64,000 nt of DNA from Escherichia phage phiEco32. Where the stretch lies: sequence record NC_010324.1. One strand, written 5' to 3'. This document shows positions 3,843-43,122 of this stretch, one piece after another (positions within the stretch are counted from its first letter, which is position 1; every line of letters begins with the position of its first letter). Under the pieces are notes generated by a model that did not search any database, had not been told where the DNA came from, and worked only from the letters and a program-made list of their open reading frames with translations. The translations under genes and the position numbers were made by a program.

Positions 3843-6086
3843 ATGGCTAAGCAAAAATATAGTGAAGAGGTGTTGGACGAGTTACGTGTTGACCTTCAAC
3901 GTCGTTTTAATTACGCTCAAGGTTACGTTGACATGGCTGTTAAGGGCTATGCTCGTGAAGCTTGGGAATATTTCTATGGTAACTTACCTGCACCAGTAAC
4001 TGCTGGCAGCTCTAGTTGGGTAGATCGTACTGTTTGGGAATCTGTTAACGGTACATTGCAAGATATTATTAACGTATTCTGTTCTGGTGATGAAGCAGTT
4101 ACTTTCGTAGCTGACAACCAACAGGACTCTGATGCTGCTGATGTAGCAACTAAACTAGTTAACCAAATTCTTCTGCGTGACAATCCGGGATACAATATTA
4201 TCTCTTCTGCTGCACAAGAATGTCTGGTTACTCGTAACTCTTTTATCAAATACTATTGGGATGAGCACACTTCTACTCAAACTGAAGAAGCTGAAGGTGT
4301 ACCACCGGAAGCATTGGCTGCATATGTTCAGGGATTAGAGGCTGGTGGACTCAAGAATCTGGAAATCTTCACTGAAGAAAACGAAGATGGTACAGTAGAT
4401 GTTAAAGTTACTTATGAACAAACTGTTAAACGTGTGAAAGTTGAATATGTTCCTTCAGAGCAAATCTTTGTTGACGAACATGCTACCTCTTTTGCAGATG
4501 CACAATACTTCTGTCATCGTGTACGTCGTTCTAAAGAAGATCTGGTTGCTATGGGCTTCCCTAAAGATGAGATTGAAGCATTCAACGACTGGACAGATAC
4601 GATGGATACTACTCAATCTACAGTTGCTTGGTCTCGTACTGACTGGCGTCAGGATATTGATGCTGATATTGGTACAGATACCGAAGACATTGCTTCTATG
4701 GTTTGGGTTTATGAGCACTATATTCGTACTGGTGTTCTAGATAAGAATAAAGAGTCTAAACTCTATCAGGTTATTCAAGCTGGTGAGCATATCCTTCACA
4801 CTGAAGAAGTAACTCACATTCCGTTTGTAACCTTCTGCCCGTATCCGATTCCGGGTTCCTTCTATGGTCAATCGGTCTATGACATTACGAAAGATATTCA
4901 AGATTTACGTACCGCGCTAGTTCGTGGTTATATTGATAACGTCAACAATGCTAACTATGGTCGATACAAAGCACTCGTTGGTGCATACGATCGTCGATCT
5001 CTGCTTGATAACCGTCCCGGTGGAGTGGTTGAAATGGAACGTCAGGACGCTATTGACCTGTTCCCATACCATAACCTACCTCAAGGTATTGACGGCCTCC
5101 TAGGCATGTCTGAGGAGCTTAAAGAGACACGTACAGGTGTAACTAAACTTGGCATGGGTATCAACCCTGATGTGTTTAAGAACGATAACGCTTATGCAAC
5201 CGTAGGCTTGATGATGAATGCTGCACAGAACCGTCTCCGTATGGTATGTCGTAACATTGCTCATAATGGTATGGTTGAATTGATGCGTGGTATTTACAGC
5301 CTTATCAGAGAGAATGGTGAAGTTCCTATTGAGGTACAAACCCCTCGTGGTATGGTTCAGGTAAATCCGAAACAATTGCCAGCTCGTCATAATCTTCAAG
5401 TTGTTGTAGCTATCTCTCCTAATGAGAAAGCAGAACGTGCACAGAAACTGATTAGCTTGAAACAGCTGATTGCAGCAGATGCACAGTTAGCACCTCTCTT
5501 CGGTTTGGAGCAAGACCGCTACATGACTGCACAGATCTTTGAGTTGATGGGTATTAAGGACACTCATAAATACCTTCTGCCTCTGGAACAGTATCAGCCT
5601 CCTGAGCCGTCTCCAATGGAAATCCTCCAGCTCGAGATGACTAAAGCACAGGTTGAGAACGTACAGGCTTCTTCTCAGAAGATGATTGCTGATGCATTCG
5701 ACCAACGTGAACGTACTACATTCGAACAGCAGAAAGCTGCGGATGAGCTAAGTCTGCGTCAGGAAGAGTTGCAGTTCAAGCAAGAAAATGCAGCAGATGC
5801 TATGACTCTGGAAAACCGTAAAGAGGATAACAATGCAACTCTGGAACAAGCTAAGCACAAGCTAGCTCTTATGCAACAGCAGGTCCGTCAGTATGAGTCT
5901 GTACTGAAAGAATTGCAGATGGTTATGGAGCATCAGGTAGACCAAGAGAAGATTGTTCAGCAATCTCGTGTTCAGGATAAAACTTTGGAACTCCAAAAGA
6001 AAGAAGCTAATGTAACTAAGAAAGAGCAACAAACTTCTCTCAAAGATTCACGGATTCCAGGCAAACGTCTTGGAAGTAAAAAGTAA
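3843..6086 (+). CDS. portal protein with long C-terminal coiled-coil / charged tail
   Basis: 747 aa directly after terL; SD GGGAGAG; C-terminal ~180 aa Q/E/K-rich heptad-like sequence. Confidence 0.75.
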   Translation: MAKQKYSEEVLDELRVDLQRRFNYAQGYVDMAVKGYAREAWEYFYGNLPAPVTAGSSSWVDRTVWESVNGTLQDIINVFCSGDEAVTFVADNQQDSDAADVATKLVNQILLRDNPGYNIISSAAQECLVTRNSFIKYYWDEHTSTQTEEAEGVPPEALAAYVQGLEAGGLKNLEIFTEENEDGTVDVKVTYEQTVKRVKVEYVPSEQIFVDEHATSFADAQYFCHRVRRSKEDLVAMGFPKDEIEAFNDWTDTMDTTQSTVAWSRTDWRQDIDADIGTDTEDIASMVWVYEHYIRTGVLDKNKESKLYQVIQAGEHILHTEEVTHIPFVTFCPYPIPGSFYGQSVYDITKDIQDLRTALVRGYIDNVNNANYGRYKALVGAYDRRSLLDNRPGGVVEMERQDAIDLFPYHNLPQGIDGLLGMSEELKETRTGVTKLGMGINPDVFKNDNAYATVGLMMNAAQNRLRMVCRNIAHNGMVELMRGIYSLIRENGEVPIEVQTPRGMVQVNPKQLPARHNLQVVVAISPNEKAERAQKLISLKQLIAADAQLAPLFGLEQDRYMTAQIFELMGIKDTHKYLLPLEQYQPPEPSPMEILQLEMTKAQVENVQASSQKMIADAFDQRERTTFEQQKAADELSLRQEELQFKQENAADAMTLENRKEDNNATLEQAKHKLALMQQQVRQYESVLKELQMVMEHQVDQEKIVQQSRVQDKTLELQKKEANVTKKEQQTSLKDSRIPGKRLGSKK

Positions 6087-36631: not shown

Positions 36632-36640
36632 TATACATTA
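36632..36640 (-). promoter_or_regulatory. TAATGTATA motif (minus orientation) upstream of the SSB gene
   Basis: Plus-strand tatacatta; ~60 nt upstream of the start at 36572; part of a near-palindrome with a plus-oriented TTATGTATA at 36622-36630. Confidence 0.4.
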
Positions 36641-36703: not shown

Positions 36704-36712
36704 TAATGTATA
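36704..36712 (+). promoter_or_regulatory. TAATGTATA motif in plus orientation inside the 416-bp AT-rich intergenic region
   Basis: Exact 9-mer; the only downstream genes are on the opposite strand, so a promoter here would make antisense or noncoding RNA. Confidence 0.3.
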
Positions 36713-36988
36713 TATTGTATAGCTGATAAAGTTATTGCAGGCTTGTATATTGGGCAATTCATAGAATCCCTTGCAAGTACCGAAGGGCAGGAGCCACCTG
36801 CGAGATAAAAATAGAGAATTAAGGAATCCTTGATTTAGGTTGTAGGGACTCCTAGGGACTTTGATTCTCTATTTAAAAGAATAATAATTACTTATTACCT
36901 AAATAATTAACTAACTTACTTAAACCAAATTCAATTAGAATAGATAAAAAGATTATTCCTAAGAAAGCTAAGAAGTAAATAATATAAG

Positions 36989-39532: not shown

Positions 39533-41377
39533 TTAGTGTGTATGCATCCAGTTAAGTCCAATCTGACAATCAGATGCCAGAGGACATTCCATGTTCAGAT
39601 ACTCGCCAGCTTTCTTAACACAAAGCTCAGTGTGCTCTTTGAGTTTCTGTACATCATTACGGTTTACTGAGAATTGACCTTCATCGTGCATATCAATTAC
39701 CTTAGCACAACGAACCTTATCTTTCTCAATCCACTTGTTAAGGAACATCATAGCATATTTCATAACAACAGCACCAGCACATTGCAGGAGTGTGTTAAGG
39801 GCTTTATGAACCATAACCTTACCAGTGGCATCCCGTCTCATTGTAATCTTACGACCATCAACTCCAATCAAGTATCCTTGAGCAGCTTTCTCTGTCATAC
39901 GATCGATGAGGATTGCAATACATGGGTTCTCTGCTAAGAAACGTGCTCGCATCACTGAACCTTCGTCAGCCCCACCACCTACAATTGAACCAAGCTTAGC
40001 ATCGCCAGCACCGTAGTTGAATGCATAGATAAATGTCTTAGCGTTGTCACGAGTAGGAAGACCAGCAAGTTTCTGGTTGTGGGAGTGGATATCACCTTCA
40101 AGGAGAATATCACGATACATAATAGCAGAAGCTAAACCACGTTCTGCCAGAGCTTTCTTAGCTGGGTTGTTCTCTTCAATTGCCTCAGCAAGCATATCCC
40201 TACACTCTTTAATGAGGTAGTGAGCGAGCATACGAAGTTCCAGTCCAGAACCATCATACCCTAAGAATACTTCTTTACCAGCGGGTATGTAATATTTGTA
40301 AGCGCCTACAGGTTTGTCTTTCTTCCCCGGCTTACCTTTCTCGTAAATTACGTTAGTACCTTTTCGTATATAACAACCATCAGGAACAACGTTAGTAATA
40401 ACGAAAGGACGAGAGTGATCACTGTCTGAGTTATAGTCAGACTCAAACAGACTGCGACACTCGTGACCAAACAAACCACGGGAGGGAATATTAACCACGA
40501 TACGATGTTTGAATCGAAAAGTTGGCGTAGCGCAGCTGTTAGCTTCTGCCGAAAGTTTACCATCTTCGCGTTCCTTTGCTATGAGTCCACTGATAAGACC
40601 TAGCCTGTGAGCCGCTACAACGCGTCTCTTAAGCAAACTTCCAACACTCCCTAGTTCACCCCCTAGCCCTTCTTCAAGAGTCTCCTCGAGGTTTGTAGGA
40701 GCTGTAGGCCACTTGTTTGATGTGGCTAATGCTTTCTTAATCTCATCAAACGTTACAGGATTACGGCGATTAGGGTTCAATCCCAAACCAAACACGTAAG
40801 CTTTCATGTAGTTCTTAGTTTTAAACCTGAAGTGCTTTTCTAAGAACTTCTTAATATCAGCGTCAACCATCTCGGCTGTCTGCTTTTGCTTAGCATTGCC
40901 TCGCATCCAAGCAGTATACCATGCTTGGTATGTTCCATACTTTCTCATATCTTTCTTAATTTCGAAAGTATTCCAAGGCTTCTTAGATACGTTAAACTCT
41001 GGAGGAAGAAAGCCCTCATCCATAAGAGCTTCTTTAACTCGTGCATCCTTCGATGGGTCAAAGTCTACATATTCGACACAGGTGAAAGCTCCACCAATGT
41101 CTTCTCTCTTCAGTCCAACCCTATCACAATAAGCTTGAGGCCACTTCTGCAAAGCCCCTGACTTCTTAAATGGCTTCATGTAAGTAGAGCCATCTAATCT
41201 CATCTTAGGTAAGAGAGGAATCAACTCTCTGTCAATATTAACAATAATCTCTTTAAGGAGGTGAACATACCACCGAGCATTTCTTCGGTTGAAACTCACT
41301 CCGTGCTTTGCTTGCTTAGAGATTATATCAGCGACAGTCATCTCTGTCAAAAATGGAAGAGCGTCCGGGTTGCTCAC
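39533..41377 (-). CDS. family A DNA polymerase, polymerase domain only
   Basis: Motif A LGYDGSGLELRMLAHY, motif B RDNAKTFIYAFNYGAG, motif C IDMHDEGQF; no 3'-5' exonuclease motifs in this ORF. Confidence 0.85.
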   Translation of the reverse strand: MSNPDALPFLTEMTVADIISKQAKHGVSFNRRNARWYVHLLKEIIVNIDRELIPLLPKMRLDGSTYMKPFKKSGALQKWPQAYCDRVGLKREDIGGAFTCVEYVDFDPSKDARVKEALMDEGFLPPEFNVSKKPWNTFEIKKDMRKYGTYQAWYTAWMRGNAKQKQTAEMVDADIKKFLEKHFRFKTKNYMKAYVFGLGLNPNRRNPVTFDEIKKALATSNKWPTAPTNLEETLEEGLGGELGSVGSLLKRRVVAAHRLGLISGLIAKEREDGKLSAEANSCATPTFRFKHRIVVNIPSRGLFGHECRSLFESDYNSDSDHSRPFVITNVVPDGCYIRKGTNVIYEKGKPGKKDKPVGAYKYYIPAGKEVFLGYDGSGLELRMLAHYLIKECRDMLAEAIEENNPAKKALAERGLASAIMYRDILLEGDIHSHNQKLAGLPTRDNAKTFIYAFNYGAGDAKLGSIVGGGADEGSVMRARFLAENPCIAILIDRMTEKAAQGYLIGVDGRKITMRRDATGKVMVHKALNTLLQCAGAVVMKYAMMFLNKWIEKDKVRCAKVIDMHDEGQFSVNRNDVQKLKEHTELCVKKAGEYLNMECPLASDCQIGLNWMHTH

Positions 41378-41970: not shown

Positions 41971-42255
41971 TCAACCTTTCGGGAATGGCATTAAAAACTC
42001 TACAGCAGATTTGATTTCGTTATTGATTCGTGAATCACGGTAAGAGATAAACTTACCTTTGCTGTCACGTAACATCACATGGGTTCTGGCTGTTTTGTGA
42101 GGAAGCAAAGTGATACTGGTTGGTATAGTATCAATTCCTACAGAGCATGAATTAATAGTCTTACTCTCTACTAGCAGATAAGACCAAGTACGCGGTTTCT
42201 GCTCCGGACGGTTGGGGTATGTGTCTCGAATCTGTACCATAGCTAACTTATTCAT
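41971..42255 (-). CDS. hypothetical protein, paralog B of a tandem pair (C-terminus ...PFPKG)
   Basis: Shares ...KTARTxxxLRxxxGKFISY...E..A.E.L.PFPKG with the adjacent gene. Confidence 0.5.
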   Translation of the reverse strand: MNKLAMVQIRDTYPNRPEQKPRTWSYLLVESKTINSCSVGIDTIPTSITLLPHKTARTHVMLRDSKGKFISYRDSRINNEIKSAVEFLMPFPKG

Positions 42256-42256
42256 A

Positions 42257-42514
42257 TTAAACTCCTTTAGGGAATGGGATGAGGTTTTCTACTGCAACAC
42301 GATATTCTTTCTCTACATCTTTATTCTTATAAGAAATGAATTTCCCATCAGCTCCACGGAGGATTATATTAGTACGAGCTGTTTTTGCATTATGACCAAT
42401 CTGGTTTGCAATTAGGCTGATGTTGTGTTTGACATCATGGTTATTAGTGAATTTCCACTTAGCCAGACGGTTAGTCCAAACATCGATGATAGTTACGGTT
42501 TTTACAATAGACAT
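42257..42514 (-). CDS. hypothetical protein, paralog A of a tandem pair
   Basis: See paralog B. Confidence 0.5.
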   Translation of the reverse strand: MSIVKTVTIIDVWTNRLAKWKFTNNHDVKHNISLIANQIGHNAKTARTNIILRGADGKFISYKNKDVEKEYRVAVENLIPFPKGV

Positions 42515-42547
42515 AGTTATTACCTAAGAAGTTTAATTTGGTTTATA

Positions 42548-42577
42548 TAAAAGAAAAGGCCACCCTATTGGGTAGCC
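42548..42577 (-). terminator. rho-independent terminator (minus strand) after the basic-protein gene
   Basis: Stem ggcuaccc/gggtggcc with 4-nt loop, followed by UUUUCUUUU on the minus transcript. Confidence 0.5.
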
Positions 42578-42582
42578 TCATG

Positions 42583-42900
42583 TTACGATGAGCTTAAAGC
42601 TCCTTTGCGTGCTCCAGCTGCTTTTCCAGCTCGATCACCACTTTTGCCGCCGTTTGAACGGTTTGAGCTGACTGACTCAACACGTAAGTTGCTTGACGCA
42701 TTAGAGCCTCCAGACTTGACAGCTCGTTTGTGTCCAACGTCTTTACCTCTGACAGCAGCTTTTCCATCGCGCTTTTCAACGATGCGACGTGCACGGTGGC
42801 GCTGAGCATCTCCGCTCTTGCTCCCAACGCCTGTTTCACCACGGGCAATTGCGGTACGTCTTTCTTGTGCATAATCCCTCTTTCCTACATGGTCTGCCAT
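42583..42900 (-). CDS. small highly basic Gly/Ser/Arg/Lys-rich low-complexity protein (105 aa)
   Basis: Strong SD AAGGAG 7 nt upstream; A/T-rich third codon positions like the rest of the phage, unlike the competing frames; own promoter motif and terminator. Confidence 0.5.
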   Translation of the reverse strand: MADHVGKRDYAQERRTAIARGETGVGSKSGDAQRHRARRIVEKRDGKAAVRGKDVGHKRAVKSGGSNASSNLRVESVSSNRSNGGKSGDRAGKAAGARKGALSSS

Positions 42901-42936
42901 TTAGAACTCCTTAATATATCAGTGTACACTAAGGAG

Positions 42937-42945
42937 TATACATTA
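42937..42945 (-). promoter_or_regulatory. TAATGTATA motif (minus orientation) upstream of the basic-protein gene
   Basis: Plus-strand tatacatta; 36 nt upstream of the ATG at 42900; followed by palindrome AGTGTACACT. Confidence 0.45.
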
Positions 42946-42954
42946 TGGATACTA

Positions 42955-43122
42955 TTAAAACTCTGCTAAGTATTTAATATCAGAGGCATATACCTCATCA
43001 AAGGAAATAGGCTCTCCGTTGTAGAGGAGTTCTATTTTCAGTATACCAGAGCATTTGGTGTCTTTGGAATCAACCCTGATAGAGAGTTTGTCAACTATCT
43101 GAGCTTTAATCTCTTCTATCAT
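42955..43122 (-). CDS. hypothetical protein (55 aa from internal ATG)
   Basis: Track ORF 42955..43293 overlaps the upstream gene; Met at 43122 has SD AAGAG. Confidence 0.35.
   Translation of the reverse strand: MIEEIKAQIVDKLSIRVDSKDTKCSGILKIELLYNGEPISFDEVYASDIKYLAEF

Follow-up and report, generated by a model that had tools for sequence, protein, structure and literature searches.

Middle and late promoters of phages of the phiEco32 type consist of a single element, tAATGTAtA, which is used with the phage sigma factor gp36 and directs transcription initiation 6-8 bp downstream (PMC8948821). Promoters dependent on gp36 have been listed upstream of phiEco32 genes 6, 13, 26, 40, 58 and 68 (PMC4331800; for gene 58, Pavlova et al. 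2012 as cited there and in PMC8948821), and three middle and three late promoters of the same type were described in phage SU10, together with a sigma-70 promoter with a poor -35 box between CDS56 and CDS57 (PMC4281155). Gene 58 (phi32_58) corresponds in a published orthologue table to SU10_56, NJ01_067, ECBP2_0054, 7-11 gp068 and GAP52 gp061 (PMC8948821), and the SU10 orthologue, CDS56, is among the few uncharacterized genes common to all five C3 phages (SU10 paper, PMC4281155). Here we analyzed this gene and its surroundings in a stretch of 64,000 nucleotides from Escherichia phage phiEco32 (NC_010324.1), referred to below as the window. The reading that we favour, with some reserve, is that of a single-gene middle unit of a phiEco32-like phage whose product is a zinc-less HNH protein nicking or cutting DNA in the replication phase.

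The window is 90-94% identical to the genomes of Kuravirus (phiEco32-like, C3-morphotype) coliphages, with 97 matching records, and the gene is present in all 97 of these matches; in annotated relatives its open reading frame is called 'hypothetical protein similar to phi32_58'. By orthology the locus is the same gene as phiEco32 gene 58 and SU10 CDS56, carrying the same TAATGTATA in the same position, lying in the same cluster that runs from PhoH to DNA polymerase and ending at the same terminator. There is no essential difference between them, and the transcription unit is already known biology of phiEco32-type phages. In genomes of the NJ01/Bas88 type the gene is annotated solely as 'hypothetical protein'.

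The minus strand carries, from 42945 to 42546, a phage promoter element, a ribosome-binding site, a single small gene and an intrinsic terminator. A previous interpretation of the locus from its letters alone (the sequence-only reading) had named all these parts, and they are all present on this strand, with the terminator ending at 42546 and not at 42548 as then given. Neither the identity of the unit with the published gene 58 and its promoter nor the HNH motif of the protein had been noticed there. The promoter element, TAATGTATA (42937-42945, minus strand), matches the gp36 consensus tAATGTAtA exactly and stands 36 nucleotides upstream of the ATG at 42900. Five exact copies occur in the window compared to 0.54 expected, a number reached in none of 100 shuffles; all five are intergenic and face the gene downstream, the other copies preceding late and middle genes, and a near-copy, AAATGTATA, forms a sixth element at the P68 position. 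Promoters of the gp36 type are defined by a single 9-bp element and have no -35 element, and TAATGTATA is an element of this kind. Judged by its sequence and place, TAATGTATA at 42945-42937 is the positional orthologue of the phiEco32 gene 58 promoter. The promoter belongs to the phage-sigma middle/late class and is a middle promoter by its place in the middle-gene cluster, in keeping with the middle or late protein proposed earlier. A phage-sigma promoter (P69) is also found just upstream of the orthologue in phage 7-11.

Transcription is predicted to start at 42929-42931 (minus strand), 6-8 nucleotides past the promoter element, from the spacing published for phiEco32 (PMC8948821). The Shine-Dalgarno sequence TAAGGAG (42907-42913, minus strand) lies 6 nucleotides before the ATG at 42900 and is invariant in the aligned relatives. 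The cassette of 48 nucleotides that runs from the promoter element up to the ATG shows at least 95% identity across 84 phage records. It stays the same with PhoH, two small genes or something else as its upstream neighbour, so that promoter and leader travel together with gene 58. In Bas86, an HNH gene (L021, 1131-1511) stands in place of the promoter region. The palindrome singled out in the sequence-only reading, AGTGTACACT (42921-42930, minus strand), does exist, at the place where the transcript is predicted to begin, and is conserved as part of the leader; as a palindrome it is statistically unremarkable, the window containing 40 perfect palindromes of 10 bp, and it is broken in one relative, an NJ01-type sequence (L004) that reads AGTGTATACT. 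A role as operator was rejected on these two grounds. The hexamer CTCCTT stands between TAATGTATA and the palindrome, and the inverted repeat CTCCTTA/TAAGGAG falls mostly upstream of the predicted start. A weak candidate sigma-70-like promoter (TTAGCA-16-CATAAT, 42942-42969, minus strand), recognized only by its match to the consensus (9 of 12 positions), overlaps the gp36 element, and the small gene upstream, on the same strand, has its 3' end close by (stop near 42955).

The intrinsic terminator (42546-42579, minus strand) consists of a 10-bp stem (42579-42556, 6 GC pairs), an AAUA loop and a UUUUCUUUU tail, with a folding energy of -17.9 kcal/mol; the hairpin reads GAGGCTACCC-AATA-GGGTGGCCTT at 42579-42556, followed by TTTCTTTTAT. 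In all Kuravirus loci compared, the stem is kept and the loop is variable, and gene 58-type orthologues in four other genera (five genera in all) also end with an analogous hairpin. Genes inserted downstream displace the hairpin from its place directly after the gene 58 stop codon: an HNH gene in EcoN5 and an open reading frame of 97 residues in SU10, WFI101126 and Ptacy1479. In WFI101126, the annotated terminator is found beyond the insert.

Host RNA polymerase with the phage sigma factor gp36 would recognize the single element TAATGTATA, and gp79 would assist this transcription by analogy with phiEco32. Transcription would begin about 7 nucleotides past the element, near 42930, giving a leader of about 30 nucleotides that contains the consensus ribosome site. 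Most transcripts would probably stop at the intrinsic terminator, yielding an RNA of about 380 nucleotides, and read-through would supply the downstream genes as far as the DNA polymerase gene. We are highly confident that the unit is a strongly expressed single gene of the middle phase.

The protein encoded by the unit, gp58 (42583-42900, minus strand; 105 residues, 10.9 kDa), is the orthologue of phiEco32 gp58, SU10 CDS56 and phrog_4590. It is basic and of low complexity, as had been described: its isoelectric point (pI) is 11.5, Gly, Ser and Ala make up 45 of its 105 residues and Lys and Arg 25 (with 16 Gly, 15 Ala and 15 Arg), and it contains no Cys. The GC content is about 0.53 over the open reading frame compared to about 0.36-0.42 on the flanks, which agrees with the GC-rich region reported previously. 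At the first, second and third codon positions (GC1, GC2 and GC3) it amounts to 0.63, 0.59 and 0.35, respectively, and GC3 of neighbouring genes ranges from 0.33 to 0.40. Because a GC3 of 0.35 is typical of the phage, the GC excess is an effect of amino-acid composition, and a foreign origin of the segment was rejected on this value. Other frames are open in the region (96 codons in +1 and 68-73 codons on the opposite strand), and only the 105-residue frame shows the phage's usual preference for A and T at third positions, as the sequence-only reading had it.

Among 12 Kuravirus sequences, variable sites were distributed as 24/14/48 over the three codon positions, with ratios of non-synonymous to synonymous substitution rates (dN/dS) of 0.04-0.22; this pattern of substitution clearly shows purifying selection on the gene 58 protein. 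Homologous proteins numbered at least 200, many of them about 60% identical to gp58 and encoded in phages with unrelated DNA (Pseudomonas, Vibrio, Aeromonas and Salmonella phages). Selection and homologues together indicate that the single-gene unit proposed earlier encodes a real protein. The absence of a protein, by which the sequence-only reading would have been refuted, is answered by the SU10 orthologue CDS56 (10.8 kDa), which was detected with 2 peptides by mass spectrometry of a crude SU10 preparation.

Alternatively, the locus could be chiefly a structured RNA, as the sequence-only reading had also considered, or the overlapping +1 frame (92-residue open reading frame, 42872-42594) could encode another protein. 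The region is indeed GC-rich, the +1 frame runs open over 96 codons and its translation looks helical, and gp26 of phage LUZ24 is annotated in the same relative frame. However, an equally long open +1 frame arose in 23% of synonymous shuffles, stops interrupt this frame at 46-55 codons in A24, Vp_R1, SeKF_80 and a further relative (L015), and the substitution pattern agrees with the 105-residue frame. An overlapping +1 gene was rejected from the shuffling and from the loss of the frame in these four distant relatives; the open frame is a by-product, as few hydrophobic residues leave few T at second codon positions. The search for a structured RNA gave a single, sub-threshold Rfam match (E = 0.91, hence none below E = 0.9) and a minimum free energy z-score of -1.57, 6 of 100 shuffled sequences having an equal or better fold, so that this claim found no support. 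We give next to no credence to either form of this alternative.

Relatives of gp58 were collected by a profile search of 1.84 billion representatives, which returned at least 567 (clusters at 50% identity), nearly all of them stand-alone proteins of 80-115 residues. The family shows the HNH signature DH-x7-GG-x5-NL-x7-N within the consensus ...RGETGVGSKSGDAxRHRARRxxEKxxG.....VDHKKxxKxGGSNxxSNLRVRSxSxNxSxGGK..., and residues E22, A37, H57, G64, N71, N80 and G85 are invariant in an alignment of 113 members. Three of these, H57, N71 and N80, occupy the positions of the catalytic His, the structural Asn and the metal-binding Asn, and are invariant also in remote members. On the minus strand of the window they are encoded at 42732-42730, 42690-42688 and 42663-42661, respectively, with G56 at 42735-42733, inside an HNH-like beta-beta-alpha core spanning residues 53-82 (42655-42744, minus strand). 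An AlphaFold2 model computed with a deep alignment (predicted local distance difference test score, pLDDT, 81.7) has the order helix-helix-strand-strand-helix, with strand-strand-helix at residues 54-86, which is the arrangement of the beta-beta-alpha-metal fold.

Matches to known families point in the same direction at low scores. The Pfam family HNH (PF01844) was matched by 15 of 22 relatives over the DH..GG..NL core, with 14-20.6 bits against a cut-off of 21.4, and HNH_3 by 8 of the 22, just under threshold; the window protein itself gave no Pfam HNH match. A distant relative, P0264, linked to the family by its profile (E = 3.6e-8), scored above the Pfam HNH threshold with 24.1 bits. In NCBIfam there were faint matches to IscB (HNH) only, in 5 of 22 members, and searches of PDB sequences with the family profiles returned nothing relevant. 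All fold matches of gp58 were nucleases. A CxxC...CxxC zinc site was not found, the window protein having no Cys and the family no conserved Cys. We place the gp58 family as a zinc-less H-N-N variant of the His-Me finger/HNH superfamily, its membership being sub-threshold at the level of sequence. The product is very probably an HNH-fold DNA-binding protein; the nucleic-acid binding suggested in the sequence-only reading fits such a fold in a protein of pI 11.5. The label 'Cas8' carried by one GenBank orthologue probably reflects fold likeness to HNH-bearing Cas8, and the label 'cytidyltransferase' on an orthologue was supported by none of the searches.

In proteins of 450-958 residues from uncultured viruses (P0173, P0188, P0190, P0191 and P0234; the loci include L030, 387-2774, and L032, 27-2903), the gp58 domain makes up about 90 residues at the C-terminus. 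The remainder of these fusion proteins matches no Pfam or PHROG family and their gene neighbours are without known families, so they give no functional clue. By eye, the N-terminal segment of P0191 resembles the nucleotidyltransferase H-x-G-H motif.

It is quite possible, and we propose tentatively, that gp58 nicks or cleaves DNA during replication by means of His57 and a metal held by Asn80. The Lys/Arg/Gly-rich tails and the helices would hold DNA non-specifically, His57 would serve as general base and Asn80 would bind one divalent metal, perhaps with the invariant Glu22, or with Asp54 replacing the missing Asp56. The DNA would be nicked or cut in the replication phase, phage replication or recombination intermediates and host DNA being candidate targets.

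Several observations weigh against such an activity. In all Kuravirus loci examined the catalytic His is preceded by Gly (G56-H57). Among 116 homologues matched by a sequence pattern, 10 have GH at this position; the pattern counted DH in 69 others, EH in 25, VH in 6, KH in 3 and SH, QH and TH in 1 each. Most of the EH, VH and KH rows read E/V/K-H-V-D-H, the pattern having caught a His two residues upstream, and their true pre-His residue is Asp; Asp is thus found in most relatives and His or Glu in a few. The Asp before the catalytic His is a metal ligand in Cas9, T4 endonuclease VII and I-HmuI, and with Gly in place of this ligand, catalysis by the Kuravirus protein may be weak or absent. 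The strong promoter, the strong ribosome site and the terminator suggest a high abundance, which fits a DNA-coating protein more than a nuclease. The gp36-dependent start and the function of the terminator are themselves predictions for the window phage.

The main rival to the nuclease reading is a gp58 acting solely as an abundant architectural or coating protein, which would re-use the HNH scaffold for binding DNA and would not cut it. The loss of the pre-His Asp in the Kuravirus clade and of the zinc site, and the signals for high expression (own promoter, consensus ribosome site and terminator), speak for it, as do the pI of 11.5 with 25 Lys and Arg in 105 residues, the identity of about 60% across phage families, as seen in proteins that contact nucleic acid over their whole surface, and the detection of the orthologue in the crude SU10 preparation. 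A protein that only binds DNA is harder to reconcile with the invariance of H57, N71, N80 and E22 in 113 sequences, the Gly clade itself retaining H57, N71 and N80 under purifying selection, with the full D/H/E-His pair kept in most relatives and with the presence of the domain at the C-terminus of the 450-958-residue proteins, in the manner of an effector module. We regard this rival as rather unlikely and retain the nuclease reading.

As a nuclease, gp58 would differ from the described HNH enzymes. The small HNH nickases encoded beside terminase genes (Geobacter Gme HNH 4H9D, phage GVE2 HNH 5H0O and the HK97 gp74 type) have a CxxC...CxxC zinc site and His at the last catalytic position, whereas gp58 is without this zinc site and has Asn there; its clade also differs from them by the Gly before the His, the strongly basic tails, the sub-threshold Pfam HNH scores and the location in the replication module. 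As the gene is not adjacent to terminase genes, gp58 is not a packaging HNH protein of the gp74 type. I-HmuI (1U3E), an H-N-N nicking homing endonuclease, has extra DNA-binding domains, is intron-encoded and occurs sporadically, and T4 endonuclease VII, of 157 residues, is a dimer that contains zinc; in contrast to both, gp58 is the 105-residue product of a core gene and is without a recognizable specificity domain. Compared to EcoKMcrA/COG1403 HNH proteins, gp58 has neither a modified-DNA reader domain nor a zinc site, and the similarity is too weak for HMMER searches against PDB.

The location of the gene is conserved well beyond Kuravirus. It is syntenic in 7-11-like phages, Vp_R1, Lahexavirus and LUZ24-like phages and belongs to the replication/nucleotide-metabolism module in every group examined. 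The order PhoH, gene, DNA polymerase, with other genes between them, is shared by Kuravirus, 7-11-like phages, Lahexavirus and A24; in Vp_R1 the gene directly follows PhoH, and in LUZ24 and tf it directly follows the gene for the polymerase exonuclease subunit. Except in these two phages, PhoH and genes of nucleotide metabolism stand on one side of it and the DNA polymerase gene on the other. This location supports a role in the replication phase, as do the P69 promoter of 7-11 and the hairpin found after the gene in five genera. Relatives of the NJ01 and Bas88 types lack two small genes that the window phage has between PhoH and the promoter.

This distribution bears on whether gene 58 is a free-standing homing endonuclease cassette, i.e. 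a selfish mobile gene with its own promoter and terminator. The HNH motif, these two signals and the local rise in GC would suit such an element, and mobile HNH genes are found nearby, downstream in EcoN5 and upstream in Bas86, with the extra downstream open reading frame in SU10, WFI101126 and Ptacy1479. However, GC3 is phage-typical at 0.35 with a GC excess driven by amino acids, the gene is present and syntenic in all Kuravirus matches and in the four other groups just listed, CDS56 is among the genes common to all five C3 phages, the protein has only 105 residues with no separate DNA-recognition domain, and it is under purifying selection. Gene 58 is not sporadic, and on this ground we do not take it for a homing endonuclease, though mobile HNH genes repeatedly insert beside it; the idea is very improbable.

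Both flanks of gene 58 (about 42580 and about 42950) are insertion hot spots in close relatives. The HNH homing endonuclease gene of EcoN5 (L002, 2295-2789) comes after the stop codon of gene 58 and ahead of the terminator, and the 97-residue open reading frame of SU10, WFI101126 (L001, 2774-3067) and Ptacy1479 occupies the same downstream site. In the window, two paralogous genes of 94 and 85 residues (41971-42255 and 42257-42514, minus strand) stand immediately 3' of the terminator; both match phrog_6814, and their last 41 residues, which end in PFPKG, are 56% identical.

The sequence-only reading had also offered a modulator of host RNA polymerase, a role favoured only by gp58 being small, basic and expressed from a middle promoter in a phage that reprograms the polymerase. 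No similarity to gp79, gp36 or another transcription factor was found; all fold matches were nucleases. Moreover, the family occurs in LUZ24-type phages and in 7-11, which is reported to be without a gp79 homologue and host shut-off (PMC8948821). We attach hardly any weight to an action on RNA polymerase or transcription.

Phages of the LUZ24 group carry unexplained site-specific nicks (PMC3517423, PMC11780129), of which 14 have been mapped in tf. The gp58 family might be the site-specific nickase of this podophage supergroup, making the single-strand interruptions of the LUZ24 group, and a family member is encoded, directly after the gene for the DNA polymerase exonuclease subunit, in tf and in Rembedalsseter, the two phages whose nicks have experimental support. 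Against this idea, the gp58 family is just one among many genes common to those phages. The nick motif of the LUZ24 group, TACTRTGMC, shows no enrichment in the window (35 matches with at most one mismatch compared to 45 expected), where its 2 exact matches are on opposite strands, and a de novo search of the window for 8-10-mers gave no over-represented motif with strand bias, only codon-driven words. One candidate word, CAGAATGCT, with a strand bias of 7:0, was rejected: it codes for Gln-Asn-Ala and is without conserved flanks. We consider this nickase idea improbable; if it were true, Kuravirus genomes would carry so far unrecognized nicks.

Some orthologues deserve comment for their annotation. 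The published gp26 of LUZ24 (AM910650; L017, annotated 4014-4283; 'contains transmembrane domain') is shifted to frame +1 with respect to the conserved open reading frame at 3968-4279 and appears to be annotated in the wrong frame; 34 nucleotides at the 3' end of the 'DNA polymerase part I' gene also belong to the conserved frame. In Aeromonas phage LAh_9 (L019, 3989-4300), codon 9 of the orthologue is followed by an in-frame stop (MPSSPNYVR*RDYEQER...), for which an error of sequencing, a recent pseudogene or a downstream restart could account; the related phage 4_4572 (L026, 577-915) has an intact orthologue. The homologue of tf (HE611333.2; L008, about 1480-1776) seems to start at a TTG codon (MAKARDYKRE...), directly after the exonuclease-subunit gene.

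Two further regulatory sites were seen elsewhere in the window. A sigma-70 consensus, TTGACA-17-TATAAT with an upstream TG (12 of 12 matches), is located at 41322-41350 (minus strand) in the first 55 or so nucleotides of the coding sequence of DNA polymerase, which has a GTG start at 41377 behind AAAGGAG; a site of this quality is far beyond chance and could be an internal downstream start or an early promoter. In addition, exact copies of TAATGTATA stand back to back at 36632-36640 (minus strand) and 36704-36712 (plus strand), 64 nucleotides apart and facing outward, with a third near-copy, TATTGTATA, at 36713-36721. The segment 36632-36721 looks like a divergent switch region between leftward middle and rightward late clusters.

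The analysis moves the 'hypothetical gp58' into a large cysteine-free HNH-fold family that is without a Pfam assignment, and in doing so would correct at least one published annotation, the frame of LUZ24 gp26. Among podophages, Kuravirus, 7-11/GAP52-like phages, Vp_R1, Lahexavirus and LUZ24-like phages all have it as a conserved core gene within the replication module, lying just before a terminator hairpin in most of these groups and behind a phage-sigma promoter in two of them. For a highly conserved uncharacterized gene of phages kept in therapy collections, this provides a testable biochemical hypothesis, and it makes the family a candidate for the long-unexplained genome nicks of LUZ24-type phages.
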